64,000 bases of DNA, taken from assembly GCF_003334305.1 (NCBI RefSeq), contig NZ_QOWS01000017.1. One strand, 5' to 3'. A model generated the notes under the pieces. It had not been told where the DNA came from. It ran no database searches and saw only the letters and a list, made by a program, of their open reading frames with translations. Positions 32,968 to 50,429 of the stretch are shown here, piece after piece (position 1 is the first letter of the stretch; the number at the start of each line of letters is the position of its first letter). A program made the position numbers and the translations under genes. This stretch comes from Escherichia coli (lineage in GTDB: Bacteria; Pseudomonadota; Gammaproteobacteria; Enterobacterales; Enterobacteriaceae).

Positions 32968-35900
32968 ATGAATAAAATATATCGGCTAAAGTGGAACAGG
33001 TCCCGTAACTGTTGGAGCGTCTGCTCGGAGCTGGGGAGCAGAGTAAAAGGAAAAAAGTCCCGGGCTGTTTTAATTAGCGCGATAAGTTTATATTCATCTC
33101 TGGTATTCGCCGATGATGTCATCGTAAACCAGGATAAAGCTATTGATTTTGGCAAAGAGAACCAGAGCATCGATTACCGTATTACGGTGACTGACAATGC
33201 CAATCTGGTAATCAATACGACAGATACTTCCCGTCCGCGTCTGACTCTCGCTTCTGGTGGTGGGTTGGATATTACCGGAGGAAAGGTAACAATCAATGGC
33301 CCGCTTAACTTTTTGCTGAAAGGTACGGGGTTCCTGAATGTCTCCAATGCTGGCAGCGAGTTATATGCTGATGATTTGTATGAGTCAAACTCAGGCATGA
33401 GACATGATCAAGGCTATTTTAATGTCTCCAATGGCGGCAAAATTCATGTTAAGGGCACCAGTCGTCTGACTTATACGCAGGGGAATGTAAGCGGCGAAGG
33501 TAGTCAGGTAAATGCAGGGACCTTCTTTATGGGCGTTTACGGCGGATATGGCGGTAATCAGTTCCTGTCGGTTAATAACGGTGGTGAAGTTAATGCTCGT
33601 GAACATATTAGCCTGGGTTATTACGACCAACGTTCTGATACAACATTAGTCGTATCAGATGGAGGTAAAATATCCGCACCGAAAATTAGTTTAAGCACCA
33701 ACTCTGAGTTAGCGTTAGGTGCACAGGAAGGAAGTGCTGCGAAGGCTGCAGGGATTATTGATGCCGAAAAAATTGAGTTTGTGTGGGCAAAGACATCCGA
33801 TAAGAAAATCACCTTAAACCACACGGATAAAAACGCGACTATTTCCGCGGATATTGTCAGTGGCAGCGAGGGCCTGGGCTATATCAATGCGCTCAATGGC
33901 ACGACTTACTTAACCGGTGATAACTCTGCCTTTAGTGGTAAAGTCAAAATTGAGCAAAATGGCGCTTTAGGGATCACCAAAAATATAGGTACAGCAGAGA
34001 TCAACAACCGCGGGAAATTACACCTGAAGGCTGACGATAGCATGACCTTTGCCAATAAGATTTCCGGCAATGGTACAATAAGTATCGACAGTGGGACAGT
34101 GGCACTGACCGGCAATAACTATGCATTCAGCGGATATATTGATGTCGCTTCTGGTGCTGTCGCGGTTATTTCTGAAGACAAGAACATCGGCCGTGCGGAC
34201 CTGGATGTTGATGGCAAACTGCAAATCAATGCCAATAAAGATTGGGTATTTGATAACGATCTTCAAGGTAGAGGTATTGTTGAAATAAACATGGGGAATC
34301 ACGAATTCTCCTTCGATGAGTTTGCTTATACAGACTGGTTCCAGGGTTCACTGGCGTTCCAGAACACGACATTTAACCTGGAAAAGAATGCTGAGTTTCT
34401 GCAGAGAGGCGGGATCACTGCGGGTCAGGGAAGCCTGGTAACAGTGGGTAAGGGCGCTCACTCCATTAGCACTTTGGGATTCTCCGGCGGAACCGTTGAT
34501 TTTGGTGCCCTGACAGCAGGTGCACAGATGACAGAAGGGACGGTCAACGTTAGTAAAACGCTGGATTTGCGCGGCGAGGGTGTGATTCAGGTTTCTGACA
34601 GTGACGTTGTAAGCTCAGTATCTCGTGATATTGACTCTGCGTTATCGCTCACTGAAGTCGATGATGGTAACAGCACCATTAAGTTGGTTGATGCGCAAGG
34701 TGCGGAAGTTCTGGGCGATGCGGGCAATCTGCAATTGCAGGATAAAAATGGGCAAATCCTCTCCAGCAGTGCCCAACGTGATATTCAGCAGAATGGGCAA
34801 AAAGCGGCCGTCGGCACTTACGACTATCGTCTGACGAGTGGGGTAAACAATGACGGTCTGTATATCGGTTACGGCCTGACCCAGCTTGATTTACACGCTA
34901 CCGACAGCGATGCTCTGGTGCTGAGCTCTAACGGTAAAAGCGAGAATGCCGCCGATCTCAGCGCAAAGATTACCGGCAGTGGTGACCTGGCATTCAGCAG
35001 CCAGAAGGGTCAGACCGTATCGCTTTCTAACAAAGACAACGACTATACCGGTGTTACCGATCTGCGCAGTGGGACGCTTTTGTTGAATAACGATAACGTG
35101 TTGGGTAATACCCATGAACTGCGTCTGGCGGCAGAGACTGAACTGGATATGAATGGTCACAGCCAGACCGTGGGCACGCTCAATGGCAGCGCCGATTCAC
35201 TGCTGAGCTTAAATGGCGGCAGTCTGACGGTTACCAACGGGGGCACTTCAACCGGTTCGTTAACGGGGAGCGGAGAGCTGAATATTCAGGGCGGCACGCT
35301 GGACATCGCGGGCGATAACAGCAACCTGACAGCGAATGTGAACATTGCTAATTCGGCTAATGTCCTGGTAAGTCATGCGCAGGGATTGGGTAGCGCAAAC
35401 GTTGAGAACAACGGTACCCTGGCGTTGAATAATAGCGCTGAAAAAAGAGCGGCTGCGTCTGTGAATTACACCCTGGGCGGCAATCTGACCAACAACGGTA
35501 CGCTGATGACCGGAATGTCAGGACAGCAAGCTGGCAATGTGTTAGTGGTGAAGGGGAACTACCACGGTAATAACGGTCAACTAGTAATGAATACGGTACT
35601 GAATGGCGATGACTCAGTAACCGATAAATTGGTTGTCGAGGGCGATACTAGCGGCACGACTGCCGTTACGGTGAATAACGCTGGCGGTACAGGTGCGAAA
35701 ACCCTTAACGGTATCGAACTTATCCATGTAGACGGTAAGTCTGAGGGCGAATTTGTTCAGGCTGGTCGTATCGTTGCGGGGGCGTATGACTACACTCTCG
35801 CGCGTGGACAAGGGGCAAATAGTGGTAACTGGTATCTGACCAGCGGCAGTGATTCTCCTGAACTGCAGCCGGAGCCAGACCCGATGCCGAATCCGGAGCC

Positions 35901-36951
35901 AAACCCGAATCCAGAGCCGAACCCTAACCCGACACCTACGCCGGGTCCGGATCTGAATGTGGATAATGACCTGCGACCGGAGGCGGGTAGCTACATTGCG
36001 AACCTTGCAGCAGCGAATACAATGTTCACCACGCGTCTGCATGAGCGTCTGGGTAATACGTACTATACCGACATGGTGACGGGTGAGCAGAAACAAACCA
36101 CTATGTGGATGCGCCATGAAGGTGGTCATAATAAATGGCGTGATGGCAGCGGCCAGCTGAAAACCCAAAGCAATCGCTATGTTCTGCAACTGGGAGGCGA
36201 TGTCGCGCAGTGGAGCCAAAACGGCAGCGACAGCTGGCATGTTGGGGTCATGGCGGGATATGGCAACAGCGACAGCAAAACCATTTCCTCGCGAACCGGT
36301 TATCGTGCAAAAGCGAGTGTGAACGGATATAGCACCGGCCTCTATGCCACCTGGTATGCCGATGACGAGTCGCGTAATGGCGCGTATCTCGACAGTTGGG
36401 CGCAGTACAGCTGGTTTGATAACACAGTGAAAGGGGATGACTTACAAAGTGAATCCTATAAATCAAAAGGATTTACCGCTTCACTGGAAGCTGGATACAA
36501 ACACAAATTAGCTGAATTTAATGGCAGCCAGGGAACGCGTAATGAATGGTATGTTCAGCCGCAAGCACAGGTTACCTGGATGGGAGTCAAAGCCGATAAG
36601 CACCGCGAAAGCAACGGAACCCTCGTTCATAGCAACGGTGATGGCAATGTTCAAACCCGACTTGGCGTAAAAACCTGGCTGAAGAGCCACCATAAAATGG
36701 ATGACGGTAAATCCCGCGAGTTCCAGCCGTTTGTAGAAGTGAACTGGCTGCATAACAGTAAGGATTTCAGCACCAGTATGGATGGCGTGTCCGTCACTCA
36801 GGATGGAGCCCGAAATATTGCTGAGATAAAAACCGGGGTGGAAGGACAGCTAAATGCCAACCTGAATGTCTGGGGGAATGTGGGCGTTCAGGTTGCCGAT
36901 AGGGGATATAATGACACCTCTGCAATGGTTGGCATTAAGTGGCAATTCTGA
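32968..36951 (+). CDS. ehaA: large AIDA-I-type autotransporter adhesin, EhaA-like (1327 aa)
   Basis: The ATG at 32968 gives the extended signal peptide motif MNKIYRLKWNRSRNCWSVCSELG...SSLVFA. It has a long beta-helix passenger, a Pro-rich linker and a beta-barrel ending ..MVGIKWQF. The track ORF begins 22 codons upstream. The length and location next to betT match my memory of EhaA of O157:H7. Confidence 0.8.
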   Translation: MNKIYRLKWNRSRNCWSVCSELGSRVKGKKSRAVLISAISLYSSLVFADDVIVNQDKAIDFGKENQSIDYRITVTDNANLVINTTDTSRPRLTLASGGGLDITGGKVTINGPLNFLLKGTGFLNVSNAGSELYADDLYESNSGMRHDQGYFNVSNGGKIHVKGTSRLTYTQGNVSGEGSQVNAGTFFMGVYGGYGGNQFLSVNNGGEVNAREHISLGYYDQRSDTTLVVSDGGKISAPKISLSTNSELALGAQEGSAAKAAGIIDAEKIEFVWAKTSDKKITLNHTDKNATISADIVSGSEGLGYINALNGTTYLTGDNSAFSGKVKIEQNGALGITKNIGTAEINNRGKLHLKADDSMTFANKISGNGTISIDSGTVALTGNNYAFSGYIDVASGAVAVISEDKNIGRADLDVDGKLQINANKDWVFDNDLQGRGIVEINMGNHEFSFDEFAYTDWFQGSLAFQNTTFNLEKNAEFLQRGGITAGQGSLVTVGKGAHSISTLGFSGGTVDFGALTAGAQMTEGTVNVSKTLDLRGEGVIQVSDSDVVSSVSRDIDSALSLTEVDDGNSTIKLVDAQGAEVLGDAGNLQLQDKNGQILSSSAQRDIQQNGQKAAVGTYDYRLTSGVNNDGLYIGYGLTQLDLHATDSDALVLSSNGKSENAADLSAKITGSGDLAFSSQKGQTVSLSNKDNDYTGVTDLRSGTLLLNNDNVLGNTHELRLAAETELDMNGHSQTVGTLNGSADSLLSLNGGSLTVTNGGTSTGSLTGSGELNIQGGTLDIAGDNSNLTANVNIANSANVLVSHAQGLGSANVENNGTLALNNSAEKRAAASVNYTLGGNLTNNGTLMTGMSGQQAGNVLVVKGNYHGNNGQLVMNTVLNGDDSVTDKLVVEGDTSGTTAVTVNNAGGTGAKTLNGIELIHVDGKSEGEFVQAGRIVAGAYDYTLARGQGANSGNWYLTSGSDSPELQPEPDPMPNPEPNPNPEPNPNPTPTPGPDLNVDNDLRPEAGSYIANLAAANTMFTTRLHERLGNTYYTDMVTGEQKQTTMWMRHEGGHNKWRDGSGQLKTQSNRYVLQLGGDVAQWSQNGSDSWHVGVMAGYGNSDSKTISSRTGYRAKASVNGYSTGLYATWYADDESRNGAYLDSWAQYSWFDNTVKGDDLQSESYKSKGFTASLEAGYKHKLAEFNGSQGTRNEWYVQPQAQVTWMGVKADKHRESNGTLVHSNGDGNVQTRLGVKTWLKSHHKMDDGKSREFQPFVEVNWLHNSKDFSTSMDGVSVTQDGARNIAEIKTGVEGQLNANLNVWGNVGVQVADRGYNDTSAMVGIKWQF
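35869..35949 (+). repeat. proline-X dipeptide repeat linker (PEPDPMPNPEPNPNPEPNPNPTPTPGP) in the autotransporter
   Basis: Imperfect tandem 6/12-nt units are visible (ccgaatccggag ccaaacccgaat ccagagccgaac cctaacccgaca). Confidence 0.8.
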
Positions 36952-38222: not shown

Positions 38223-39155
38223 TTAATTCTCCCGATGCAGTAAATCCTGATAGATCCCCGTTAATATGCCATTTGGCGCAAATTGTTTTTTAATCCACTG
38301 CGTCACCTGACCCGTAGCAGAATGCTGAGTCGCCAGTAACATGCGCGAATCCTGGCGCGGATTATGGATTTGTCGGGTAACCAGCAGGGATTGCGTCATC
38401 GCCTCACGGACCATGTAATCCGGCAAAAAACCAATTCCTTCACCTAAAATCTGGCACTGACATTTGGTGTTGAAATCTGGCACCAGAATTGACTCCTGCC
38501 CGTGCAGCAACCAGCCCACTTTTTTATTAATCGTATGCGCGGTGTCCTCCACCATAATATTAGGGTAGAGACGCAGTTGGCTTTCGGCGATGGGTTCCGG
38601 CACAAAGGCTAACGGGTGATCCGGGGCGATAGCAAAAGCCCAGCGAATCGCGCCAATTTCAGTGTAATCAATACCGCCGCCGTCCAGTAGTGTATCGGGT
38701 GCGCCGATGGCGATATTGGCCTGATTATTAATAATCGCATCCCAGACGCCGTTATACACTTCGGTGGTGACGGTAATCTGGCAGGTAGGAAACTGCTTTT
38801 TCAGCACCTGTAACAAGCGTGCGGTGTGTTTGGGCGTATAAAGCAGCTGATTAATACAAATGCGCACACGTGCTTCTATGCCCTGCGAAATAGTATCGAT
38901 ACTGCGTTTGATGGCGTGAAAATCATTCAGCAGGTCGGTAGCTTTGCGGAAAAAATAACGCCCGGACTCCGTTAACTCAATGCTGCGGGTACTGCGAGTG
39001 AACAGCACCACATCCAGCCCCGTCTCCATACGCTTGATGGTGTAGCTAATGGCGGAAGTGGTTAAACCCAACTCTTCTGCGGCTTTACTGAAGCTGCCAA
39101 AACGCGCAGCGGTAGTAAATGCCAACAGATTCTCTTCGGTAAAAATTGAGTTCAT
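38223..39155 (-). CDS. yahB: LysR-family transcriptional regulator YahB
   Basis: 310 aa with an N-terminal wHTH (LLAFTTAARFGSFSKAAEELGLTTSAISYTIKRMETGL) and a LysR substrate-binding domain. Confidence 0.9.
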   Translation of the reverse strand: MNSIFTEENLLAFTTAARFGSFSKAAEELGLTTSAISYTIKRMETGLDVVLFTRSTRSIELTESGRYFFRKATDLLNDFHAIKRSIDTISQGIEARVRICINQLLYTPKHTARLLQVLKKQFPTCQITVTTEVYNGVWDAIINNQANIAIGAPDTLLDGGGIDYTEIGAIRWAFAIAPDHPLAFVPEPIAESQLRLYPNIMVEDTAHTINKKVGWLLHGQESILVPDFNTKCQCQILGEGIGFLPDYMVREAMTQSLLVTRQIHNPRQDSRMLLATQHSATGQVTQWIKKQFAPNGILTGIYQDLLHREN

Positions 39156-39246
39156 TAAACCATTCTCGCCATTATCTACTATGAATTTCTCCAGCTATGA
39201 CTGTAGAGGTATCGGTTAAAGATAGATAATCATTTTTGAATAACTT

Positions 39247-39744
39247 TTAATACCCGTCGCGTTTAGTCGTCGCTTCGCTTAATTTTTGTCCACCATATTC
39301 TGAAATTATCCCCACGCAGTTACCCGCCAGAAAACCCAGTAACGTCACCGTCCAGTTCATCCCGCTGGCAAAAAACAGCGTCATGCCGAGAAAGCCACCG
39401 GGAATAAAGGACAGTAACCAGAAACGCCCTTGCCAGACCACTACCGCCGAGAAGGGTACGGTAGTAATTACGCTCGCCCAGAACGCGGACAGTCCACTTA
39501 CAGAGGCCAGCCAACCGGCAGCCAGCGCGGCGAAAAATGCCCACACCATCCCGGAATAATTAACCGCCAGACTTCTGATAAACCCCGATTTACCGCCGCC
39601 TGCGGCATAAAAACTGCAAAAGGCGACGAAGCCAATGGTTCCTAATAATTCCCATCCCTGAGAGAGCCCGACATGTGAAGACACTAACTGCCAAAGCCCT
39701 GCACAAATACCGACGGTGACACCCGTTGCCGTGAGTCCGTTCAT
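39247..39744 (-). CDS. yahC: small polytopic inner-membrane protein YahC
   Basis: 165 aa made almost entirely of 4-5 hydrophobic helices. Confidence 0.8.
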   Translation of the reverse strand: MNGLTATGVTVGICAGLWQLVSSHVGLSQGWELLGTIGFVAFCSFYAAGGGKSGFIRSLAVNYSGMVWAFFAALAAGWLASVSGLSAFWASVITTVPFSAVVVWQGRFWLLSFIPGGFLGMTLFFASGMNWTVTLLGFLAGNCVGIISEYGGQKLSEATTKRDGY

Positions 39745-40001
39745 CTTGTTCCCCTCTGGTTAGACATGGACGAAAGCTACTCTTACATGTGCAGACTATA
39801 GAGAAATAAAACCTGATTGAGTGAAAGGGTATCGGGTCAAAGAAACAAATATTGCACTACCGCACACTGCGAAAAGATTGTTGAACATCATTCAACAAAA
39901 AGGCGAAATACAGCGAATTAAATTTAAGCGGGTTCTTTTATCAGATTATCGTTGCTATTCTCAATTCATCGAAAACAGCCACAAAAACCAGGGGAATGTG
40001 A

Positions 40002-40607
40002 ATGAGTATAAAAAATCTACCTGCCGACTATTTATTGGCTGCACAACAGGGTGATATCGATAAAGTAAAAACCTGCCTTGCGCTGGGTGTCGATATTAAT
40101 ACCTGCGATCGTCAGGGGAAAACGGCAATTACGCTGGCAAGTTTATATCAGCAATATGCTTGCGTTCAGGCATTAATTGATGCCGGAGCGGATATTAATA
40201 AGCAAGATCATACCTGTTTAAATCCTTTTTTAATTAGCTGTCTGAACGATGATTTAACGCTACTACGAATTATTTTACCGGCTAAACCCGATCTTAATTG
40301 CGTAACCCGTTTTGGCGGTGTCGGCCTGACGCCTGCCTGTGAAAAAGGCCATTTAAGTATTGTAAAAGAGCTTTTGGCGCATACGGAGATTAACGTTAAC
40401 CAGACCAACCATGTAGGCTGGACGCCGCTACTGGAAGCGATTGTGCTTAATGATGGTGGTATTAAACAGCAGGCGATTGTGCAGTTATTGCTGGAACACG
40501 GTGCCAGCCCGCATCTGACCGATAAATATGGCAAAACGCCACTGGAACTGGCGCGGGAACGGGGCTTTGAAGAGATTGCGCAGTTACTGATTGCCGCAGG
40601 TGCATAA
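40002..40607 (+). CDS. yahD: ankyrin-repeat protein YahD
   Basis: 201 aa with repeated ankyrin units (..GKTAITLASLYQQYACVQALIDAGADIN.., ..GWTPLLEAIVLN.., ..GKTPLELARERGFEEIAQLLIAAGA). Confidence 0.9.
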   Translation: MSIKNLPADYLLAAQQGDIDKVKTCLALGVDINTCDRQGKTAITLASLYQQYACVQALIDAGADINKQDHTCLNPFLISCLNDDLTLLRIILPAKPDLNCVTRFGGVGLTPACEKGHLSIVKELLAHTEINVNQTNHVGWTPLLEAIVLNDGGIKQQAIVQLLLEHGASPHLTDKYGKTPLELARERGFEEIAQLLIAAGA

Positions 40608-40646
40608 ACCGGGAGGCTTGCTATCAACACACCAGAAAGACGGTGT

Positions 40647-41510
40647 GTGTGGGCGCTAACTGCGGATGCGGATTTTCTGGCGCAGCGGGGGCAAGGACAG
40701 GTTGAACAGGTCTTTGCCAGAGCGGTAAATATCGCACTCCCGGCTCGCCAGCAGTTGCTGACGCTGCTTTGTGAAGAGTACGACAATGCGCCAAACAGTT
40801 GTCGGTTGGCACTCACTCACTTTGATGATCTGTTCCGGCATGGTGATAAGGTTCAGTTTGACGATCAAGGTATTACGGTTGGTCAACATCTTCATATAGA
40901 GATGAGTCGTTGTCGGCGTTGGCTGTCCCCAACCTTGCAAATGACCGCTGTGAATTTTCACCTTATCGCCTGGCTACAGTGGCACGACATTATTCATCAG
41001 CACCTGGGGGAAAATGAAACCCTGTTTAATTATCGCGGCGATAATCCGTTTTATCAGGCGTTAAATAAAGAACTACATATTAAACGACGGGCAGTTATTC
41101 AGGCAGTAAACGAAAAACAAAATATCGCCGCAGCGGTCGCCAGTATGATTGGGTTAGGGATTGGCCTTACGCCATCAGCCGACGATTATTTAACAGGTCT
41201 GGCGCTTATTTTATTTATTCCCGGGCATCCGTCGGAAAAATACAAAGAGGAATTTTATCTCGGTATGCAGCGCGGCAGAAATAACACCACATTATTAAGT
41301 GCTATAACGCTGGAAGCCGCATTACAACAACGTTGCCGGGAAAATATTCATCGTTTTATTCACAACATTATTTATGACATCCCTGGGAACGCAACTCAGG
41401 CAATAGAAAAAATTAAACATATTGGCTCCAGTTCCGGCTGCGACATGCTGTATGGCATGGCCGATGGTTGTGCGCTGAGCCAAACCTACGGAGGGAATTA
41501 TGTCAGTTAA
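40647..41510 (+). CDS. yahE: DUF2877-family protein YahE (YlbF paralog)
   Basis: 287 aa with a GTG start. It lies upstream of and overlaps yahF by 11 nt. The family assignment is from memory. Confidence 0.8.
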   Translation: MWALTADADFLAQRGQGQVEQVFARAVNIALPARQQLLTLLCEEYDNAPNSCRLALTHFDDLFRHGDKVQFDDQGITVGQHLHIEMSRCRRWLSPTLQMTAVNFHLIAWLQWHDIIHQHLGENETLFNYRGDNPFYQALNKELHIKRRAVIQAVNEKQNIAAAVASMIGLGIGLTPSADDYLTGLALILFIPGHPSEKYKEEFYLGMQRGRNNTTLLSAITLEAALQQRCRENIHRFIHNIIYDIPGNATQAIEKIKHIGSSSGCDMLYGMADGCALSQTYGGNYVS

Positions 41511-43047
41511 AATAGTCATTAAACCGAATACCTATTTTGATTCTGTCTCGCTGATGTCTATCTCCACGCGTGCAAATAAACTCGACGGCGTCGAGCAGGC
41601 ATTTGTGGCGATGGCGACCGAAATGAACAAAGGTGTACTGAAAAATTTAGGACTGCTGACGCCGGAGCTGGAACAGGCGAAAAACGGCGACCTGATGATT
41701 GTCATCAACGGCAAAGCGGGCGCGGACAACGAACAGTTGCTGGTGGAGATTGAAGAACTGTTCAACACCAAAGCGCAAAGCGGCTCGCATGAGGCGCGTT
41801 ACGCCACTATTGCCAGCGCCAAAAAGCATATCCCGGAAAGTAACCTGGCGGTGATTTCGGTCAACGGTCTGTTTGCCGCTCGCGAAGCGCGTCAGGCGCT
41901 GCAAAACGATCTCAACGTGATGCTGTTTTCCGATAACGTCTCAGTTGAAGATGAATTGGCGCTCAAGCAACTGGCCCACGAAAAAGGGCTGCTGATGATG
42001 GGGCCAGACTGTGGCACGGCGATTATTAACGGCGCGGCGCTCTGTTTTGGTAACGCCGTGCGTCGCGGCAACATCGGTATTGTTGGCGCATCCGGCACCG
42101 GCAGCCAGGAGCTGAGCGTCCGCATTCATGAATTTGGCGGCGGCGTTTCGCAACTGATTGGCACCGGCGGGCGCGACCTGAGCGAGAAAATCGGCGGCCT
42201 GATGATGCTCGACGCCATCGGCATGCTGGAAAACGATCCGCAAACTGAAATCATTGTGCTTATCTCCAAACCGCCCGCGCCTGCGGTGGCCCGCAAAGTG
42301 CTGGAACGCGCGCGCGCCTGCCGCAAGCCGGTGGTGGTCTGTTTCCTCGGTCGTGGCGAAACGCCAGTGGATGAGCAGGGGCTACAGTTTGCCCGCGGCA
42401 GCAAAGAGGCGGCATTGAAAGCGGTGATGCTCTCCGGCGTGAAACAGGAACATCTCGACCTGCATACGCTGAACCAGCCGTTGATTGCTGACGTACGTGC
42501 TCGCCTGCAACCGCAGCAGAAGTACATTCGTGGCCTGTTCTGTGGCGGCACGCTGTGTGACGAAACCATGTTCGCGGTGATGGAAAAACACGGCGATGTC
42601 TACAGCAACATTCAGCCCGATCCGGAATTCCGCCTGCAAGATATCAACCGTAGCATCAAACACACCTTCCTCGACTTTGGCGATGACGACTTCACCAACG
42701 GCAAGCCGCATCCAATGATTGACCCCACCAACCGCATCAGTCGCTTGATCGAAGAGGCGCGCGATCCAGAAGTGGCGGTGATCGTGATGGATTTTGTGCT
42801 CGGATTTGGATCGCATGAAGATCCGGTCGGCTCCACCATTGAGGCGATCAAAGAAGCGAAAGCGATCGCCGCTGCCGAAGGCCGTGAGTTGATCATTCTC
42901 GCCTATGTGCTGGGCACCGATCTTGATACGCCATCATTAGAACAACAAAGCCAGATGCTGCTTGATGCCGGAGTGATTCTGGCGAGCAGCAGCACCAATA
43001 CCGGATTGCTGGCGCGTGAATTTATCTGCAAAGGGGAGGAAGCCTGA
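41500..43047 (+). CDS. yahF: FdrA-like acyl-CoA synthetase (NDP-forming)/succinyl-CoA-ligase-alpha-like protein YahF
   Basis: 515 aa with a CoA-ligase alpha-type core (..GNIGIVGASGTGSQE.., ..IGTGGRD..). GGAGGG lies upstream of the ATG. Confidence 0.88.
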   Translation: MSVKIVIKPNTYFDSVSLMSISTRANKLDGVEQAFVAMATEMNKGVLKNLGLLTPELEQAKNGDLMIVINGKAGADNEQLLVEIEELFNTKAQSGSHEARYATIASAKKHIPESNLAVISVNGLFAAREARQALQNDLNVMLFSDNVSVEDELALKQLAHEKGLLMMGPDCGTAIINGAALCFGNAVRRGNIGIVGASGTGSQELSVRIHEFGGGVSQLIGTGGRDLSEKIGGLMMLDAIGMLENDPQTEIIVLISKPPAPAVARKVLERARACRKPVVVCFLGRGETPVDEQGLQFARGSKEAALKAVMLSGVKQEHLDLHTLNQPLIADVRARLQPQQKYIRGLFCGGTLCDETMFAVMEKHGDVYSNIQPDPEFRLQDINRSIKHTFLDFGDDDFTNGKPHPMIDPTNRISRLIEEARDPEVAVIVMDFVLGFGSHEDPVGSTIEAIKEAKAIAAAEGRELIILAYVLGTDLDTPSLEQQSQMLLDAGVILASSSTNTGLLAREFICKGEEA

Positions 43048-44465
43048 TGAGCCAGTCACTGTTTAGCCAACCATTGAACGTTATTAACGTCGGCATCGCC
43101 ATGTTTAGCGATGATCTGAAAAAGCAGCATGTAGAAGTGACTCAACTCGACTGGACGCCGCCGGGGCAGGGCAATATGCAGGTGGTGCAGGCGCTGGATA
43201 ACATTGCCGATTCGCCGCTGGCAGACAAAATCGCCGCCGCTAACCAGCAGGCGCTGGAGCGCATTATCCAGTCGCATCCGGTGCTGATTGGTTTTGATCA
43301 GGCGATTAACGTGGTGCCGGGCATGACGCCGAAAACCATTCTTCACGCCGGGCCGCCGATCACCTGGGAAAAAATGTGCGGCGCGATGAAAGGCGCGGTC
43401 ACCGGGGCGTTGGTGTTCGAAGGGCTGGCGAAAGATCTCGATGAGGCGACTGAACTGGCGGCCTCCGGGGAGATCACCTTCTCGCCGTGCCACGAACACG
43501 ACTGCGTGGGATCGATGGCGGGCGTTACCTCGGCCTCGATGTTTATGCACATCGTGAAAAACAAAACCTACGGCAACATCGCTTATACCAATATGAGCGA
43601 GCAGATGGCGAAGATTTTGCGTATGGGTGCCAACGATCAGAGCGTGATCGACCGCCTCAACTGGATGCGCGATGTGCAGGGGCCAATGCTGCGCGACGCG
43701 ATGAAAATTATCGGTGAGATCGATCTGCGCTTAATGCTGGCGCAGGCGCTGCATATGGGCGATGAGTGCCATAACCGCAATAACGCCGGGACGACGCTGC
43801 TGATTCAGGCACTGACGCCGGGGATCATTCAGGCAGGCTATTCCGTCGAGCAACAGCGCGAAGTGTTCGAGTTTGTCGCCAGCAGCGACTACTTCTCCGG
43901 CCCGACGTGGATGGCGATGTGTAAAGCGGCGATGGATGCGGCGCACGGCATCGAATACAGCACCGTGGTCACCACCATGGCGCGTAACGGCGTCGAGTTC
44001 GGCCTGCGGGTCAGCGGCCTGCCGGGGCAGTGGTTTACCGGCCCAGCGCAGCAGGTCATCGGCCCGATGTTTGCTGGTTATAAGCCGGAAGATTCGGGGC
44101 TGGATATCGGCGACAGCGCCATCACAGAAACCTACGGTATTGGCGGGTTTGCCATGGCGACCGCGCCTGCAATCGTCGCACTGGTGGGCGGCACGGTGGA
44201 AGAGGCTATCGATTTCTCCCGTCAGATGCGCGAAATCACCCTTGGCGAAAACCCCAACGTCACCATTCCGCTGCTCGGTTTTATGGGCGTGCCGTCGGCA
44301 ATCGACATCACCCGCGTGGGTAGCAGCGGCATTCTGCCGGTGATCAACACCGCCATCGCCCATAAAGATGCGGGCGTCGGCATGATTGGCGCGGGCATTG
44401 TGCATCCACCATTCGCCTGCTTCGAGAAAGCCATTCTCGGCTGGTGCGAACGTTACGGCGTCTGA
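43047..44465 (+). CDS. yahG: DUF1116-family protein YahG (YlbE paralog)
   Basis: 472 aa. Its start overlaps the yahF stop (TGATG). The family assignment is from memory. Confidence 0.85.
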   Translation: MSQSLFSQPLNVINVGIAMFSDDLKKQHVEVTQLDWTPPGQGNMQVVQALDNIADSPLADKIAAANQQALERIIQSHPVLIGFDQAINVVPGMTPKTILHAGPPITWEKMCGAMKGAVTGALVFEGLAKDLDEATELAASGEITFSPCHEHDCVGSMAGVTSASMFMHIVKNKTYGNIAYTNMSEQMAKILRMGANDQSVIDRLNWMRDVQGPMLRDAMKIIGEIDLRLMLAQALHMGDECHNRNNAGTTLLIQALTPGIIQAGYSVEQQREVFEFVASSDYFSGPTWMAMCKAAMDAAHGIEYSTVVTTMARNGVEFGLRVSGLPGQWFTGPAQQVIGPMFAGYKPEDSGLDIGDSAITETYGIGGFAMATAPAIVALVGGTVEEAIDFSRQMREITLGENPNVTIPLLGFMGVPSAIDITRVGSSGILPVINTAIAHKDAGVGMIGAGIVHPPFACFEKAILGWCERYGV

Positions 44466-44478
44466 CTTACATGTTTAT

Positions 44479-44558
44479 GCCGGATGCGGTGTGAACGCCT
44501 TATCCGGCCTACGGATGGCCCGAGAATTGTAGGCCTGATAAGCGTAGCGCATCAGGCA
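44479..44558. repeat. BIME (two inverted REP elements) between yahG and yahI
   Basis: GCCGGATGCGGTGTGAACGCCTTATCCGGCCTAC and GTAGGCCTGATAAGCGTAGCGCATCAGGCA are classical REP sequences. Confidence 0.9.
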
Positions 44559-44607
44559 GTCTGGCGTTGGTCATAACCTAATCACCCTCTGTAGCGGACA
44601 TAACAAC

Positions 44608-45558
44608 ATGAAAGAGCTTGTGGTCGTTGCCATTGGTGGCAACAGCATTATCAAAGATAACGCCAGCCAGTCGATTGAGCATCAGGCGGAGGCGGTGAAA
44701 GCCGTGGCCGATACGGTGCTGGAAATGCTGGCTTCCGATTACGACATTGTGCTGACCCACGGTAACGGGCCGCAGGTCGGGCTGGATTTACGCCGTGCGG
44801 AGATTGCCCACGAGCGCGAAGGGCTGCCCTTAACGCCGCTGGCGAACTGTGTGGCAGATACGCAGGGCGGCATCGGCTATCTGATCCAACAGGCGCTGAA
44901 TAACCGGCTGGCGCGTCACGGCGAGAAAAAAGCCGTCACCGTGGTAACTCAGGTGGAAGTGGATAAAAACGATCCAGGTTTTGCCCATCCCACCAAGCCC
45001 ATTGGTGCATTCTTCAGTGAAAGCCAGCGTGACAAACTACAAAAGGCAAACCCTGACTGGTGTTTTGTTGAAGATGCCGGACGGGGCTATCGCCGCGTGG
45101 TCGCCTCGCCGGAACCGAAACGTATTGTCGAAGCACCCGCCATTAAGGCGCTGATCCAACAAGGTTTTGTCGTAATTGGCGCGGGCGGCGGTGGAATTCC
45201 GGTAGTGCGTACTGAAGCGGGGGATTACCAAAGCGTGGACGCGGTTATTGACAAAGATCTCTCTACCGCGCTGCTGGCCCGTGAAATTCACGCCGACATT
45301 CTGGTGATCACCACCGGCGTCGAAAAAGTCTGTATCCACTTTGGTAAACCGCAGCAGCAGGCGCTGGATCGGGTGGATATTGCCACCATGACTCGCTATA
45401 TGCAGGAAGGGCATTTTCCGCCCGGCAGCATGTTGCCAAAAATCATCGCCAGCCTGACGTTCCTGGAGCAGGGCGGCAAAGAAGTGATTATCACCACGCC
45501 GGAATGCCTGCCTGCGGCGCTGCGCGGTGAAACGGGCACCCATATTATTAAAACGTAA
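44608..45558 (+). CDS. yahI: carbamate kinase-like protein YahI
   Basis: 316 aa. MKELVVVAIGGNSI.., ..THGNGPQVG.., ..GAGGGGIPV.. are carbamate kinase / amino-acid kinase motifs. Confidence 0.92.
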   Translation: MKELVVVAIGGNSIIKDNASQSIEHQAEAVKAVADTVLEMLASDYDIVLTHGNGPQVGLDLRRAEIAHEREGLPLTPLANCVADTQGGIGYLIQQALNNRLARHGEKKAVTVVTQVEVDKNDPGFAHPTKPIGAFFSESQRDKLQKANPDWCFVEDAGRGYRRVVASPEPKRIVEAPAIKALIQQGFVVIGAGGGGIPVVRTEAGDYQSVDAVIDKDLSTALLAREIHADILVITTGVEKVCIHFGKPQQQALDRVDIATMTRYMQEGHFPPGSMLPKIIASLTFLEQGGKEVIITTPECLPAALRGETGTHIIKT

Positions 45559-45567
45559 GGACGTAGG

Positions 45568-46950
45568 ATGAAAGAAAGCAATAGCCGCCGTGAATTTCTG
45601 AGCCAGAGCGGTAAGATGGTCACCGCCGCCGCGCTGTTTGGTACCTCTGTGCCGCTCGCCCATGCGGCGGTAGCTGGCACCCTAAACTGCGAAGCGAACA
45701 ACACCATGAAAATCACTGACCCGCATTACTATCTCGATAACGTGCTGCTGGAAACCGGTTTTGACTACGAAAACGGTGTGGCGGTGCAGACCCGCACGGC
45801 GCGCCAGACCGTGGAGATTCAGGACGGCAAAATTGTCGCCCTGCGCGAGAACAAGCAGCATCCGGACGCCACGCTGCCGCACTATGACGCTGGCGGTAAG
45901 TTGATGCTACCCACCACTCGCGACATGCATATTCATCTCGACAAAACCTTCTACGGCGGGCCGTGGCGCTCGCTCAATCGTCCGGCAGGCACCACTATCC
46001 AGGACATGATCAAACTCGAGCAGAAAATGCTGCCGGAGTTACAACCGTATACGCAGGAGCGGGCGGAAAAACTGATCGATCTATTGCAGTCGAAAGGCAC
46101 CACCATTGCCCGCAGCCACTGCAATATCGAACCGGTTTCCGGCCTAAAAAATCTGCAAAATTTGCAGGCGGTGCTGGCGCGGCGTCAGGCGGGCTTCGAG
46201 TGTGAAATCGTCGCCTTCCCGCAGCACGGTTTGCTGCTGTCGAAATCGGAACCCTTAATGCGCGAAGCGATGCAGGCGGGTGCGCATTACGTCGGCGGGC
46301 TGGACCCGACCAGTGTTGATGGCGCGATGGAAAAATCCCTCGACACCATGTTTCAGATTGCGCTGGACTACGACAAAGGTGTCGATATTCACCTGCACGA
46401 AACCACTCCGTCGGGCGTGGCAGCCATCAATTATATGGTTGAAACGGTAGAGAAAACGCCGCAACTGAAAGGTAAGTTGACCATCAGCCACGCCTTTGCG
46501 CTGGCTACGCTCAACGAACAACAGGTCGATGCGCTGGCGAATCGGATGGCGGCGCAGCGAATTTCTATCGCCTCGACGGTGCCGATTGGCACGCTGCATA
46601 TGCCGCTCAAACAGTTGCACGACAAAGGCGTAAAAGTGATGACTGGCACTGACAGCGTTATCGACCACTGGTCGCCTTATGGTCTGGGCGACATGCTGGA
46701 AAAAGCCAATCTCTACGCGCAGCTCTATATTCGTCCTAACGAACAGAACCTCTCCCGTTCGCTGTTTCTAGCCACTGGCGATGTATTGCCGCTGAATGAA
46801 AAAGGCGAGCGTGTATGGCCAAAAGCGCAGGATGATGCCAGCTTTGTGCTGGTGGACGCCTCCTGTTCCGCCGAGGCGGTGGCGCGTATCTCGCCGAGAA
46901 CCGCAACGTTCCATAAAGGGCAACTGGTGTGGGGGAGTGTGGCAGGTTGA
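45568..46950 (+). CDS. yahJ: metal-dependent amidohydrolase/deaminase YahJ with twin-arginine signal peptide
   Basis: 460 aa. The Tat motif is SRREFLSQSGKMVTAAALFGTSVPLAHA. The amidohydrolase metal motif DMHIHLD and downstream HLHE / H..F motifs are present. Confidence 0.9.
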   Translation: MKESNSRREFLSQSGKMVTAAALFGTSVPLAHAAVAGTLNCEANNTMKITDPHYYLDNVLLETGFDYENGVAVQTRTARQTVEIQDGKIVALRENKQHPDATLPHYDAGGKLMLPTTRDMHIHLDKTFYGGPWRSLNRPAGTTIQDMIKLEQKMLPELQPYTQERAEKLIDLLQSKGTTIARSHCNIEPVSGLKNLQNLQAVLARRQAGFECEIVAFPQHGLLLSKSEPLMREAMQAGAHYVGGLDPTSVDGAMEKSLDTMFQIALDYDKGVDIHLHETTPSGVAAINYMVETVEKTPQLKGKLTISHAFALATLNEQQVDALANRMAAQRISIASTVPIGTLHMPLKQLHDKGVKVMTGTDSVIDHWSPYGLGDMLEKANLYAQLYIRPNEQNLSRSLFLATGDVLPLNEKGERVWPKAQDDASFVLVDASCSAEAVARISPRTATFHKGQLVWGSVAG

Positions 46951-47248: not shown

Positions 47249-47659
47249 ATGACCATAAAAGAAAAATTCTCACAAAAATATCCCCATGCTTCCTTTTGTA
47301 CTTTTGGCGATTCAGCAGCGTTGGCCGATCACCTCGCAACGTTGATTGCGACTGGTGTTAAAACAGCTTCCTGTGGTTCGCTGGCGGGATGTATTGAAGA
47401 CAACGCATTTCCGATGATTGGTGAGTATAAGATTGTAGAAAATAGCCGTGGTGAGCCTGTATGTGTTATCAGAGTGATTGGCCTGCATTTACTGCGCTTT
47501 TCTGATGTCACCGTGGAGCTTGCCCGTAAGGAAGGTGAAGGTGACCTCAGTCTTGAATATTGGCGTAATGAACACCGTCGTTTTTTCCAGGCAGAAGGAA
47601 GCTATTCACCAGAAATGGACGTTATATTTGAAGAATATGCCCTTATTGACGTTGTGTAG
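47249..47659 (+). CDS. ASCH-domain protein (COG4405/YhfF-like)
   Basis: 136 aa: MTIKEKFSQKYPHASFCTFGDSAALADHLATLIATGVKTASCGSL...VTVELARKEGEGDLSLEYWRNEHRRFF. The EGEGD-SL-WR-H pattern is typical of this ASCH subfamily. I do not remember it at this position in K-12. Confidence 0.7.
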   Translation: MTIKEKFSQKYPHASFCTFGDSAALADHLATLIATGVKTASCGSLAGCIEDNAFPMIGEYKIVENSRGEPVCVIRVIGLHLLRFSDVTVELARKEGEGDLSLEYWRNEHRRFFQAEGSYSPEMDVIFEEYALIDVV

Positions 47660-47909
47660 ATAACTATTTATCTACGCGAAATAAACTCACACACATAAAA
47701 TATCGCTAATTTTGTTTATTTTGCTATTTTTTACGTGATGAATGTCACACTTATTGTTGCTGCCCGTTTTGTCCATATTTATAACCATATTTTTAATAGC
47801 TGCCTGAAATAGGGCTGTTTATTCTGCATAAAAATATTCGAAAATTCTTATTCTCTCCAGCGCGCTAATTTGGGCGAACACTTCCTGACTACCCTGCAAT
47901 GAGGCTGAA

Positions 47910-48896
47910 ATGATGAATAAACGTTTTGTTATCAATATGGTGTCTTCGCTGTTATTAGGCGCTGCGCTAATTTCTGCGCCGCTCCAGGCAGCGGAAAAAG
48001 TCGTGGTGAATATCTCTAAAGTCGATGGTATGCCGTGGTTTAATCGCATGGGCGAAGGTGTGGTTGAGGCGGGTAACGCCTTTGGTGTTAATGCGTCACA
48101 GGTGGGGCCTTCAAGTACTGATGCTCCGCAACAAGTTAAAATTATTGAGGATTTAATCGCCCGTAAGGTTAATGCAATTACTATCGTGCCAAACGATGCC
48201 AACGTGCTGGAACCGGTATTCAAAAAAGCGCGAGATGCCGGAATTGTGGTTCTGACCAACGAATCCCCCGGTCAGCCAAGTGCTAACTGGGATATCGAAA
48301 TCATTGATAACGAAAAATTTGCCGCTGAATATGTTGAGCATATGGCGAAACGCATGGGGGGCAAGGGCGGCTATGTGATTTACGTGGGTAGTTTGACCGT
48401 GCCGCAGCATAACTTATGGGCTGACTTGCTGGTGAAATACCAGAAAGAGCATTACCCGGATATGCATGAAGTTACCCGCCGCATGCCGGTTGCCGAGAGT
48501 GTGGATGACTCACGTCGTACCACACTGGACCTGATGAAAACCTATCCTGACTTGAAAGCGGTTGTCTCCTTTGGTTCAAACGGTCCGATTGGCGCGGGAC
48601 GTGCGGTGAAAGAGAAACGGGCGAAAAATAAAGTCGCAGTCTATGGCATGATGATCCCTTCACAGGCGGCATCACTGATTAAAAGTGGTGATATCACCGA
48701 AGGGATTACTTACGATCCGGCCTCTGCAGGTTACGCACTCGCAGCCGTCGCCAGCACGTTGCTGAAGGGTGAAGAGATCAAACCTGGATTAGAAATGCAG
48801 AATCTGGGTAAGGCCGACGTAGATATGGATAAGCGAATTATCCGTTTCCATAAGGTATTACTGGTCAACAAAGACAATATCGACTCACTTTATTAA
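47910..48896 (+). CDS. periplasmic sugar-binding protein, LsrB/RbsB-like (PBP type I)
   Basis: 328 aa. The signal peptide MMNKRFVINMVSSLLLGAALISAPLQA is followed by AEKVVVNISKVDGMPWFNRMGEGVVEAG.., which is collinear with LsrB ([27 protein letters not shown]..). The C-terminus ..LLVNKDNIDSLY parallels LsrB ..VIFNKENIGKYDF. Confidence 0.8.
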   Translation: MMNKRFVINMVSSLLLGAALISAPLQAAEKVVVNISKVDGMPWFNRMGEGVVEAGNAFGVNASQVGPSSTDAPQQVKIIEDLIARKVNAITIVPNDANVLEPVFKKARDAGIVVLTNESPGQPSANWDIEIIDNEKFAAEYVEHMAKRMGGKGGYVIYVGSLTVPQHNLWADLLVKYQKEHYPDMHEVTRRMPVAESVDDSRRTTLDLMKTYPDLKAVVSFGSNGPIGAGRAVKEKRAKNKVAVYGMMIPSQAASLIKSGDITEGITYDPASAGYALAAVASTLLKGEEIKPGLEMQNLGKADVDMDKRIIRFHKVLLVNKDNIDSLY

Positions 48897-48906
48897 TCCA
48901 TTTCTT

Positions 48907-48922
48907 CGGGGCGAAAGCCCCG
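48907..48922 (+). other. intercistronic GAAA-tetraloop hairpin between the binding-protein and ATPase genes
   Basis: CGGGGC GAAA GCCCCG followed by ATTCTTATT. It is a likely mRNA-stabilising or attenuating element. Confidence 0.5.
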
Positions 48923-48944
48923 ATTCTTATTGCCAGGGGATGTT

Positions 48945-50429
48945 ATGGAAACTTTCCTTTCCCTTCGTCATATCAACAAAACGTTTCATGCCACGCGAGC
49001 GCTGCGCGATGTTTCTCTCGACTTTATGTCGGGTGAAGTGCACTGCCTTGCCGGGCAAAACGGCTGTGGTAAATCGACGTTGATTAAAATTATGTCCGGT
49101 GTTTATCGCCCGGATGAGGGAGCGGAAATTACGCTTGGTGGGAAAAACTGGTCAAAGCTGACACCCGCCGCTTCGGTGGCGCAGGGGATTCAGGTGATTT
49201 ATCAGGACCTCTCTTTATTTCCTAACCTGAGTGTCTGGGAGAATATCGCCGTGAATCACTATCACCACGGTCTGTTTGTTAACCGCCGTCGTCTGCGTGA
49301 GGTGGCGCAGGCGGCAATGACCAGTATTAACGTCACATTGCCACTGGATACACTCGTTTCTGAGCTTTCAATTGCCCGCTGTCAGCTGGTAGCAATTTGC
49401 CGTGCACTGGCGCAGGACGCACGGTTGATCGTGATGGATGAACCAACCGCTTCGCTGACCCATCAGGAAGTGCAAGGGTTATTACAGGTGGTGCATCAAT
49501 TGCGGGAACGCGGGATCTGCGTGGTCTTCGTCAGTCATCGTCTGGAAGAAGTGATGGAAGTTTCCGACCGTATTTCAGTGCTGAAAGATGGTGAGCTGGT
49601 CGGGACTTTTCCGGCTGCAGAGATGACCACAAAACAACTCGGTTTCCTGATGACCGGCCAGGAGTTCGAATATCAGGTGCGAGAGTTGTGGCAGGGAAAA
49701 TCCAGCACCCCGGTGCTTGAGGTGCGTAATTTAAGTCGTCATGGGGAATATCTAAATATTAACTTGCGGGTGGAAGCGGGCGAAGTGGTATCGATTGTTG
49801 GCCTGCTTGGTGCGGGGCGCACGGAATTATGTCTGAGTCTGTTTGGTATGACCCGACCGGATGCTGGCGAGATCCTCATCAACGGCCAGCCGGTTACACT
49901 GCATAGTAACCAGGACGCTATCCGCCACGGTATTGGTTATGTTTCGGAAGATCGCATGTCGCGCGGTTTGGTGATGGCGCAATCTATTGAAGACAACATC
50001 ATTAGCACTGTTTTTCACAAGGTAAAAGATCGCTTCGGCTTTCTGAGTGAAACTAAAGTTCGTGACCTGGTGGACAGGCTAATCAAGGCATTGACCATCA
50101 AAGTCTCTGATCCTCATCTTCCGGTGAATACGCTTTCTGGTGGTAACGCGCAGCGAGTATCGATCGCCAAATGGCTGGCGATTGGGCCACGACTGTTGAT
50201 TCTCGATAGCCCGACAGTCGGTGTTGATATCGCCAACAAAGCAGGAATATACGGCATTATCAGCGATCTGGCGGCTCATGGCATTGCGGTATTGATGATC
50301 TGCGATGAAATTGAAGAAGCGTGGTATCAAAGCCACCGGATTTTGGTAATGCAAAAAGGTCAGATCACCCATAGCTTCCTGCCTGACAGCAGTTCTCAGG
50401 CCAGGATTGCGGAGGTGGTAAATGGCTGA
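48945..50429 (+). CDS. CUT2-family sugar ABC transporter ATPase (fused double NBD)
   Basis: 494 aa from ATG 48945. NBD1 has Walker A GQNGCGKST and Walker B LIVMDEPT. NBD2 has GLLGAGRTE, LSGGNAQR and LILDSPT. Confidence 0.9.
   Translation: METFLSLRHINKTFHATRALRDVSLDFMSGEVHCLAGQNGCGKSTLIKIMSGVYRPDEGAEITLGGKNWSKLTPAASVAQGIQVIYQDLSLFPNLSVWENIAVNHYHHGLFVNRRRLREVAQAAMTSINVTLPLDTLVSELSIARCQLVAICRALAQDARLIVMDEPTASLTHQEVQGLLQVVHQLRERGICVVFVSHRLEEVMEVSDRISVLKDGELVGTFPAAEMTTKQLGFLMTGQEFEYQVRELWQGKSSTPVLEVRNLSRHGEYLNINLRVEAGEVVSIVGLLGAGRTELCLSLFGMTRPDAGEILINGQPVTLHSNQDAIRHGIGYVSEDRMSRGLVMAQSIEDNIISTVFHKVKDRFGFLSETKVRDLVDRLIKALTIKVSDPHLPVNTLSGGNAQRVSIAKWLAIGPRLLILDSPTVGVDIANKAGIYGIISDLAAHGIAVLMICDEIEEAWYQSHRILVMQKGQITHSFLPDSSSQARIAEVVNG

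Follow-up and report, generated by a model that had tools for sequence, protein, structure and literature searches.

Purified AllF-AllG-AllH is the oxamate carbamoyltransferase (EC 2.1.3.5) of Escherichia coli; its subunits co-purify, and it has Km values of 1.3 mM (carbamoyl phosphate) and 36.9 mM (oxamate) (PMC11326118). Kim and Kim (2024) found that ΔallF and ΔallG strains stop oxamate formation from allantoin entirely, that a ΔallH strain makes ~7% of wild-type oxamate, and that full complementation requires all three of allF, allG and allH (PMC11326118). AllK (YbcF) is the catabolic carbamate kinase (PMC9843812), and the allF operon is activated by AllS and ArcA (PMC12535856). These papers (Kim and Kim 2022 and 2024 among them) nowhere mention the yah genes. 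Here, we analyzed the yahB–yahJ cluster at positions 38223-46950 of a 64,000-nt stretch of E. coli DNA (contig NZ_QOWS01000017.1; hereafter the window) and found that it has the characters of a mobile variant of the AllFGH/AllK step, one with an ankyrin protein and a putative deaminase as feeder. We propose, with about equal weight for and against, that yahB–yahJ is a self-contained, mobile catabolic module that would convert a nitrogen-rich ureide to carbamoyl phosphate and then harvest ATP. An original prediction, made from this DNA alone, had already suggested a carbamoyl-phosphate-yielding pathway paralogous to the fdrA-ylbE-ylbF-ybcF block; it called the oxamate carbamoyltransferase role of that block suspected and not proven, which is outdated since the role was shown in 2024 both genetically and with purified AllFGH.

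The interval 38223-46950 is E. coli chromosome, 100% identical to several complete E. coli genomes, and RefSeq names its genes yahB, yahC, yahD, yahE, fdrA (yahF), yahG, yahI and yahJ. Calling of open reading frames (ORFs) returned all eight genes in the predicted order and at identical positions. The features of the locus are:

38223-39155, minus strand: yahB, LysR-type regulator (Pfam HTH_1 and LysR_substrate)
39236-39250: TTGAATAACTTTTAA, the distal operator-like site, which overlaps the stop codon of yahC and is 81 nt upstream of the yahB start
39247-39744, minus strand: yahC, small membrane protein (Pfam DUF1097, 1.2e-26)
39881-39895: main operator-like palindrome TTGAACATCATTCAA, 121 nt upstream of the yahD ATG, a T-N11-A box
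40002-40607, plus strand: yahD, ankyrin-repeat protein (ankyrin Pfam families, ~1e-27)
40647-41510, plus strand: yahE, AllH-family subunit (PF11392 AllH/DUF2877, 1.2e-28)
41500-43047, plus strand: yahF, AllF/FdrA-family subunit (CoA_binding and Ligase_CoA, 7.7e-36)
43047-44465, plus strand: yahG, AllG-family subunit (PF06545 AllG/DUF1116, 4.5e-89)
44466-44607: yahG–yahI spacer with palindromes of repetitive extragenic palindromic (REP)/bacterial interspersed mosaic element (BIME) type, two REP-like palindromes being present in the sequence
44608-45558, plus strand: yahI, carbamate kinase paralogue (Pfam AA_kinase)
45568-46950, plus strand: yahJ, amidohydrolase (Pfam Amidohydro_3) with a signal peptide at about residues 1-33 (45568-45666)

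As predicted, yahE and yahF overlap by 11 nt and yahF and yahG by 1 nt (TGATG). The remaining spacers measure 39 nt (yahD–yahE), 142 nt (yahG–yahI) and 9 nt (yahI–yahJ), and a consensus scan detected no terminator-like site in any yahD-to-yahJ gap; plus-strand terminator-like sites sit only within yahF and yahB, and their total is not above that of shuffled sequence. Pfam confirmed the predicted assignment of YahE to DUF2877 and of YahG to DUF1116, and now labels these families (PF11392 and PF06545) AllH and AllG, oxamate carbamoyltransferase subunits. A literature search on the yah gene names, on DUF1116/DUF2877 and on fdrA with carbamate kinase and ankyrin found no functional study.

The paralogy with the all locus is real and extends to the regulator. 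By BLASTP against K-12, YahF is 39% identical to AllF (E = 1e-102), YahG 45% to AllG (1e-119), YahE 25% to AllH (2e-10), YahI 38% to AllK (3e-57) and YahB 39% to AllS (5e-73); judged by these similarities, five genes of the two loci correspond. Both loci place genes for an FdrA-type CoA_binding/Ligase_CoA protein, a PF06545 protein and a PF11392 protein beside a carbamate kinase gene, both adjoin an AllS-type LysR gene, and F precedes G in both. The same triad and kinase thus recur in a different order, as predicted: F-G-H-K in the all locus of K-12 and (D)-E-F-G-I-J in yah. YahI is closer to the third kinase, YqeA (46%), than to AllK. It scores 650 bits with NCBIfam PRK12352 (cut-off 266) and 347.6 bits with TIGR00746 arcC, slightly below the cut-off of 358.25, and it matches the carbamate kinases of PDB entries 1e19 (1.6e-83) and 1b7b (6e-73) over its full length. 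In sequence, YahI has the characters of a carbamate kinase (EC 2.7.2.2). By analogy, the chemistry is likely common to the two systems: phosphorolysis of an N-acylurea to carbamoyl phosphate.

The two systems are nevertheless distinct. Identities between them are limited to 25-45%, and the subunit order is E-F-G in yah and F-G-H in all. The yah module also has an ankyrin gene, kept in nearly all relatives examined, a deaminase predicted to be exported by twin-arginine translocation (Tat), a dedicated 517-residue permease in most taxa and its own operator motif, and it lies outside the allantoin genes. Within 10 kb of the module in 92 Yah-type loci, we found no homologue of AllA, AllB, AllD, AllE or GlxK, and allantoin-pathway, ygeW, hyuA and guaD homologues were likewise absent, with the exception of an AllC-like M20 protein in two Bacillales. 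The yah cluster is not a member of the allantoin regulon, and it does not replace allFGH in the deletion strains.

Do YahE, YahF and YahG form one enzyme? The original prediction took the gene overlaps as a sign of a complex, and fusions between F and G, a fusion of E with F, a shifted F/G boundary and the co-purification of AllFGH all argue in the same direction. Many representatives of the AllG family are chains of 720-1076 residues with a Ligase_CoA (F) region before the AllG domain, a layout seen in 6/6 long chains scanned, and in Zophobihabitans yahE and yahF form a single ORF of 817 codons. Residues 12-53 of YahG (43080-43205) match residues 514-555 of AllF, its last 42 residues (E = 3e-8), and the FdrA model of NCBIfam also detects this head segment of YahG; thus, the same segment ends F in the all locus and starts G in the yah locus. 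From these relations we infer that a YahE-YahF-YahG complex probably exists. YahF falls in the FdrA subfamily of NCBIfam (492 bits; cut-off 433), matches PDB 3dmy (FdrA) at 1.3e-82 and carries the motif G[KR]PHPMIDP, which is invariant in four aligned FdrA-like sequences. YahE is the least conserved subunit, with a median identity of 48% over 51 loci and the highest ratio of nonsynonymous to synonymous substitution rates (dN/dS; 0.20-0.27), and its predicted fold (predicted local distance difference test score 91) has no counterpart among solved structures. YahE as the loosest part of the enzyme fits the residual activity of the AllFGH system without allH. In a separate protein of the family, P0409 (551 residues), a GntR DNA-binding domain is joined to the AllG domain, which suggests that the AllG fold could sense small molecules and that the AllG-type subunit may be the one that binds the substrate.

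The original prediction called the ankyrin protein rare in enterobacteria and missed its conservation in the module. An ankyrin gene is present in 79/79 informative Enterobacterales/Aeromonas loci and in 7/8 non-enterobacterial contexts, some with added tetratricopeptide (TPR) repeats; ankyrin or ankyrin-TPR genes occur in Brevibacillus, Janthinobacterium, Aeromonas, Psychrobacillus, Paenibacillus, Trichococcus and a metagenomic proteobacterium, and on the Enterococcus contig no ankyrin gene was found within 10 kb of the Yah-type cluster. The ankyrin protein is a conserved core component and a signature of the Yah type. YahD matches PDB entries 3hra, which we take to be an E. faecalis protein, and 5d66 over its full length, and yahD has a dN/dS of 0.07-0.15. 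We propose that YahD is a fourth component of the enzyme.

YahJ appears to be an AtzC/CodA-like metal-dependent deaminase. Its nearest PDB entries are the AtzC-like 6nbo (7e-45) and AtzC 2qt3, followed by cytosine deaminase, and H121/H123, Q219, H275, H277, E278, H308 and D362 are conserved in an alignment with CodA and AtzC. With CodA, YahJ shares the HxH motif, the FPQ glutamine, the HxHE glutamate, the SH histidine and the aspartate positions, and with AtzC the HxHxDK and HxH motifs. All catalytic positions of cytosine deaminase are thereby kept: HxH, a third histidine and the aspartate as metal ligands, the catalytic glutamate and histidine, and the substrate glutamine. YahJ falls below the cut-offs of the cytosine-deaminase models of NCBIfam and belongs to an unnamed subfamily, PRK06846. 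Unlike AtzC and CodA, YahJ carries a twin-arginine signal: its N-terminus reads MKESNSRREFLSQSGKMVTAAALFGTSVPLAHA and has an S/T-R-R-x-F-L-K-type motif with a hydrophobic segment and an AxA cleavage site behind it, and the twin-arginine motif SRREF[LI]S is present in 70/71 full-length YahJ orthologues. YahJ has been listed as an E. coli Tat substrate of unknown function, and in mice the competitive index of a ΔyahJ strain of extraintestinal pathogenic E. coli (ExPEC) was 0.70 (p = 0.02; PMC7549933). Judged by its signal, YahJ is predicted to be exported by Tat to the periplasm, so the first step would be periplasmic in Gram-negative hosts.

Relatives of the module span two phyla. YahG stands out by its conservation, with identities of 85-99% among Enterobacterales and Aeromonas, 79% for Janthinobacterium and 74-77% for Brevibacillus, Psychrobacillus, Paenibacillus and Enterococcus (74-88% for orthologues from Firmicutes, Betaproteobacteria and Aeromonas), and YahF and YahG are 68-88% identical between Firmicutes and Proteobacteria. 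The Yah type makes up about one cluster in a 50%-identity library, the remaining ~3,400-cluster AllG family lying at 50% identity or less. Most Yah-type clusters contain a carbamate kinase gene, which fits the carbamoyl-phosphate-yielding role predicted from the sequence. The other parts vary: the regulator is an AllS-like LysR protein in Proteobacteria and of PucR type in Firmicutes, and the deaminase, an optional part that many clusters have, is a YahJ-type amidohydrolase in Proteobacteria and Trichococcus and has an unrelated fold in Bacillales. The Bacillales deaminase is a zinc protein of 150 residues that shares ~50% identity with the guanine deaminase core of B. subtilis and keeps the equivalent of Asp114, and its gene adjoins that of an allantoin-permease-like NCS1 transporter. 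A cytoplasmic deaminase beside an extra NCS1 importer fits an amino form as one entry compound and an oxo form as the substrate of the core. In Psychrobacillus (L093:19915-21150) and Paenibacillus (L097:16710-17951), an M20/M28 amidohydrolase gene, its product 33% identical to AllC, lies two genes downstream of the Yah-type cluster, past an oppositely oriented alpha/beta-hydrolase gene, and may represent a further ureide-processing step.

Most of these clusters come with a dedicated transporter. A polytopic membrane protein of ~517 residues (~11-12 helices) is encoded after yahG in 64/79 Enterobacterales/Aeromonas loci (L007:11540-13093, L006:11656-13209, L098:9167-10717 and 61 other loci, all outside the window) and also in Janthinobacterium, Psychrobacillus and a metagenomic proteobacterium. 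Across Firmicutes and Proteobacteria this protein keeps 68-91% identity, and its gene always lies within Yah-type clusters. The protein has no Pfam or NCBIfam match, and a profile of 11 orthologues gave weak, non-significant matches to E. coli XanQ, GhxQ and UacT near the NCS2 signature; one plasmid record labels it 'xanthine permease', which we take as a hint and not as a classification. In Enterococcus and Trichococcus, a different membrane protein of 394 residues occupies the transporter position, and in Bacillales an NCS1 permease closest to allantoin permease is additional to the 517-residue protein or replaces it.

The yah module is horizontally mobile. A second copy flanked by insertion sequences (IS) is present on the chromosome of E. 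coli PK8566 (L098) and on plasmid AP026455.1 (L100, 42875-51308); it encodes LysR, ankyrin, H, F, G, the 517-residue permease and the kinase, and no yahJ. We found this copy in 142/5426 complete E. coli genomes, where 106/152 places are on plasmids, and in 86 plasmid records from E. coli and Klebsiella, 78 of them conjugative; the one examined is an IncF plasmid. A further related cluster lies on the tkt1 island of APEC (avian pathogenic E. coli) O1 and on GR29 of strain BEN2908 (PMC3349570, PMC12928451). This strain-specific ExPEC/APEC cluster has the same triad and kinase as yah together with an NCS1-type permease, is ~46% identical to YahG and encodes an isochorismatase (RutB-like) hydrolase where yah has the amidohydrolase; an ankyrin gene is not among its listed genes (PMC3349570, PMC12928451). 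The E. coli pan-genome therefore holds at least four versions of the enzyme system.

A putative regulatory system accompanies the module. YahB has the features of AllS/PunR-type LysR regulators, namely their domains, a divergent arrangement and a T-N11-A box; among NCBIfam models it scores best with AllS (268 bits, where the equivalog cut-off is 372) and next best with PunR. A YahB-like LysR gene adjoins the module in 76/79 Enterobacterales/Aeromonas loci and in Janthinobacterium. A T-N11-A core is typical of LysR operators. The palindrome TTGAACATCATTCAA is the sole exact match to TTGAA-N5-TTCAA in the 64-kb window (0.12 expected), and with at most one mismatch the motif lies within 330 nt upstream of yahD in 75/83 loci, mostly at 115-160 nt; the yah palindrome is absent from the allD–allF control region. 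In loci that lack yahC, a further conserved site, TTGAAC-N4-ATTTAA, is found next to yahB at a distance of ~178 bp from the main one, and TTGAATAACTTTTAA matches it. With the second site at 39236, yahC lies between both sites, in a divergent control region common to yahD. YahB may bind the TTGAA-N5-TTCAA and TTGAATAACTTTTAA sites. At the same locus, a strong peak of chromatin immunoprecipitation with exonuclease digestion (ChIP-exo; signal/noise 55.9) has been assigned to yahC (PMC8464067 supplement). It lies at K-12 334131-334162, inside yahB and at about 38853-38884 of the window, and belongs to a transcription factor other than YahB.

The E. coli locus differs from most relatives between yahG and yahI. 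yahC occurs in 13 loci, all without the 517-residue permease (the Escherichia/Kluyvera/Citrobacter/Raoultella/Trabulsiella type), all 64 permease-bearing loci lack yahC, and no locus has both. YahC has about three strongly hydrophobic segments in a crude hydropathy scan, and yahC has a dN/dS of 0.04-0.12. REP-type palindromes fill the yahG–yahI spacer of the window where relatives encode the permease, and K-12 carries a larger REP insertion in this spacer (K-12 339744-340164) that is annotated yahH. In enterohaemorrhagic E. coli (EHEC), whose spacer is also of a longer form, ribosome profiling found the yahH ORF, which is REP-containing and disputed, to be translated, and it was suggested to be a member of an operon yahDEFGIJ (PMC4765031). 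Across the eight genes, dN/dS lies at 0.02-0.27, both within E. coli and against Citrobacter, Kluyvera and Raoultella, which share the permease-less, yahC-containing arrangement; purifying selection acts on every one of the eight. Each of the 5426 complete E. coli genomes contains at least one match to the cluster query, the weakest covering the REP spacer only, and ~58% of them match at least 80% of the query in one piece. The K-12 match ends at 73% of the query, the break being the REP insertion, with yahI and yahJ intact.

How would the module work? Guanine deaminase, AtzC and the creatinine and cytosine deaminases turn a ring acyl-guanidine or amidine into an N-acylurea. Since deaminases of this kind yield an N-acylurea, AllFGH cleaves an N-acylurea with phosphate and carbamate kinase harvests the product, we propose the following sequence. 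YahJ, exported by Tat, would act in the periplasm on a guanine-, ammelide- or creatinine-like compound; loss of an amino or imino group would leave an N-acylurea function. The product would then be imported by the conserved 517-residue permease in most lineages; in the Escherichia/Kluyvera/Citrobacter type, the importer may be YahC. YahE-YahF-YahG together with YahD would act as an AllFGH-type carbamoyltransferase, passing the carbamoyl group to phosphate, and YahI would transfer the phosphate to ADP, with formation of ATP, ammonia and CO2. YahB would control the divergent yahC(B) and yahDEFGIJ promoters through the TTGAA-N5-TTCAA boxes. We infer the reaction, its direction, the link between YahB and the boxes and a substrate other than allantoin-derived oxalurate; what the sequences themselves show are the gene content, the homologies, the conserved context, the fusions, the Tat motif, the conserved palindromes and the purifying selection. 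The same three-step logic is known from compact operons for a deiminase, a transcarbamylase and a carbamate kinase, which also have their own transporter. Their transcarbamylase is of the classical trimeric ornithine/putrescine transcarbamylase (OTC/PTC) fold, whereas yah encodes the unrelated multi-subunit AllFGH type; their deiminase is of another fold, is cytoplasmic and acts on alkyl-guanidines, in contrast to the acyl-guanidines or heterocyclic amidines proposed for yah.

Several findings weigh against this proposal. When YahB was mapped by ChIP-exo in a published experiment on glucose minimal medium, the only peaks were three weak ones away from yah; the conserved transporter of the module is missing from the E. 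coli lineage; yahE is absent from 28 Enterobacter/Leclercia/Lelliottia loci; and the clusters of Enterococcus, Trichococcus and the metagenomic L090 have no kinase nearby. The copies of Aeromonas, Janthinobacterium and the plasmids have no deaminase, which would make the deaminase a feeder step, with the core acting on what the permease imports. Most likely, the substrate is an N-acylureide that derives from a purine or a ureide, and it may be oxalurate itself; a purine-derived compound is our best guess because regulators, transporters and deaminases alike are related to proteins of purine or ureide metabolism. The chief competing view, which we consider unlikely though it deserves serious weight, is that YahDEFG acts on oxalurate as a second oxamate carbamoyltransferase and represents the ancestral form of this enzyme, widespread and ankyrin-containing, and that oxalurate or a precursor (parabanate or an imino analogue) is taken up directly and not made from allantoin. 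The three enzyme families are those of AllFGH, the regulators are AllS paralogues in Proteobacteria and proteins of the PucR purine-catabolism type in Firmicutes, the NCS1 transporter is closest to allantoin permease, and the 68-88% identity of YahF and YahG across phyla suggests one common, invariant substrate. E. faecalis has a Yah-type cluster (YahG shares 74% identity with PDB 3clq, and YahD matches the 3hra ankyrin protein), and oxamate transcarbamylase activity has long been reported from this species, as cited in PMC6022934 and PMC3282769; the cited titles (Tigier and Grisolia 1965; Vander Wauven et al. 1986) speak of parabanic acid as an inducer in a streptococcus and, for S. faecalis, of an oxalurate pathway. 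A substrate other than oxalurate is nonetheless plausible, given the transporter, deaminase and operator that yah has of its own, the lack of allantoin genes nearby and the failure of ΔallF and ΔallG E. coli to make oxamate from allantoin though yah is present; this lack of back-up may also mean that yah is not induced by allantoin. The distance to AllFGH (25-45% identity) also speaks against oxalurate, and ring-amidine-type deaminases would have no obvious role if oxalurate itself enters. In a bolder reading that we hold to be rather improbable, YahDEFG would open a cyclic N-acylurea directly by phosphorolysis, giving a carbamoyl-phosphate-type acyl phosphate from which YahI would make ATP. 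We propose xanthine, uracil, a hydantoin such as N-methylhydantoin from creatinine, and parabanate as candidates. A core module of ankyrin, E, F, G, permease and kinase without a ring-opening hydrolase is compatible with direct ring phosphorolysis, and the nucleobase types of the transporter (labelled a xanthine permease in one record) and of the feeder deaminases (guanine-deaminase-like and AtzC/CodA-like) would point the same way.

Two further explanations deny the pathway to E. coli or to the module as a whole. The E. coli cluster could be a cryptic remnant that lost its transporter, is unused and is kept by inertia; REP elements stand in place of the gene for the 517-residue permease, there is no known phenotype and no ChIP-exo binding of YahB at the locus, and individual strains have a frameshifted yahG or truncated genes. 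We regard this as quite improbable, because all eight ORFs are intact in the window, the cluster is present in nearly all of the 5426 genomes, yahC within the control region is itself under purifying selection, the ΔyahJ strain is slightly attenuated in mice and the yahH ORF is translated as a suggested part of the operon; on dN/dS, we rejected a decaying pseudogene cluster. Alternatively, YahF could be an NDP-forming acyl-CoA synthetase and the cluster would activate an organic acid with CoA without making carbamoyl phosphate. The CoA_binding and Ligase_CoA domains of YahF would agree with this function, as would its resemblance to the succinyl-CoA synthetase alpha subunit (SucD) over ~180 residues. 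However, the phosphohistidine motif G-H-A-G-A of SucD is absent from YahF and AllF, where the sequence after KPVVV reads ...GLQFARGS; as the MAFFT alignment of YahF with SucD is unreliable in the C-terminal half, this claim is limited to the absence of GHAGA. The yah cluster contains no gene for an ATP-grasp beta subunit, and lack of both the motif and the partner gene makes 'acyl-CoA synthetase' an unlikely label for function. Moreover, the closest characterized relative, AllF, is part of a carbamoyltransferase and a carbamate kinase gene is the usual neighbor. We rejected the synthetase reading of YahF on these grounds and hold it to be extremely improbable.

The proposed carbamoyl-phosphate pathway concerns eight adjacent genes of the best-studied bacterium, and the assay protocol published for the paralogues in 2024 can now be used on the Yah proteins. 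The module spans Firmicutes and Proteobacteria, and a version of it rides conjugative IncF plasmids of E. coli and Klebsiella; it includes a bacterial ankyrin protein resembling an enzyme subunit, and its pathway would start with a predicted periplasmic deaminase. Identification of the substrate would add a substrate-level source of ATP from nitrogen-rich waste compounds, would give a function to DUF1097 and to the unclassified family of 517-residue permeases, and would show how a three-subunit carbamoyltransferase family of ~3,400 clusters at 50% identity has diversified. If direct opening of a cyclic acylurea were true, it would mean an oxygen- and molybdenum-independent, ATP-yielding breakdown of nucleobases or creatinine in gut and soil bacteria.

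Individual loci and the surroundings of the cluster vary. yahG is frameshifted in E. coli MS21199 (L099:5125-6542), the ORF matching yahF has just 283 codons in E. albertii NBRC 107761, and E. coli ECDA1023 has shortened ORFs for yahC, yahI and yahJ. In Enterobacteriaceae bacterium G50 (L009), identity to the window is 72% for YahD, 58% for YahE and 73% for YahC versus 98% for YahF, 99% for YahG, 99% for YahI and 97% for YahJ; this mosaic points to a recombination breakpoint between yahE and yahF. On the yahB side of the cluster, the betT–pdeL interval holds ehaA, an autotransporter adhesin gene (32968-36951 of the window), where K-12 has only the tiny yahV ORF. Downstream, the yahJ–yahK interval (47249-52346) holds an ASCH-domain gene and a four-gene ABC transporter made of a substrate-binding protein annotated as autoinducer-2-binding, one ATPase and two permeases; K-12 lacks the ASCH gene and the transporter, and yahK directly follows yahJ.

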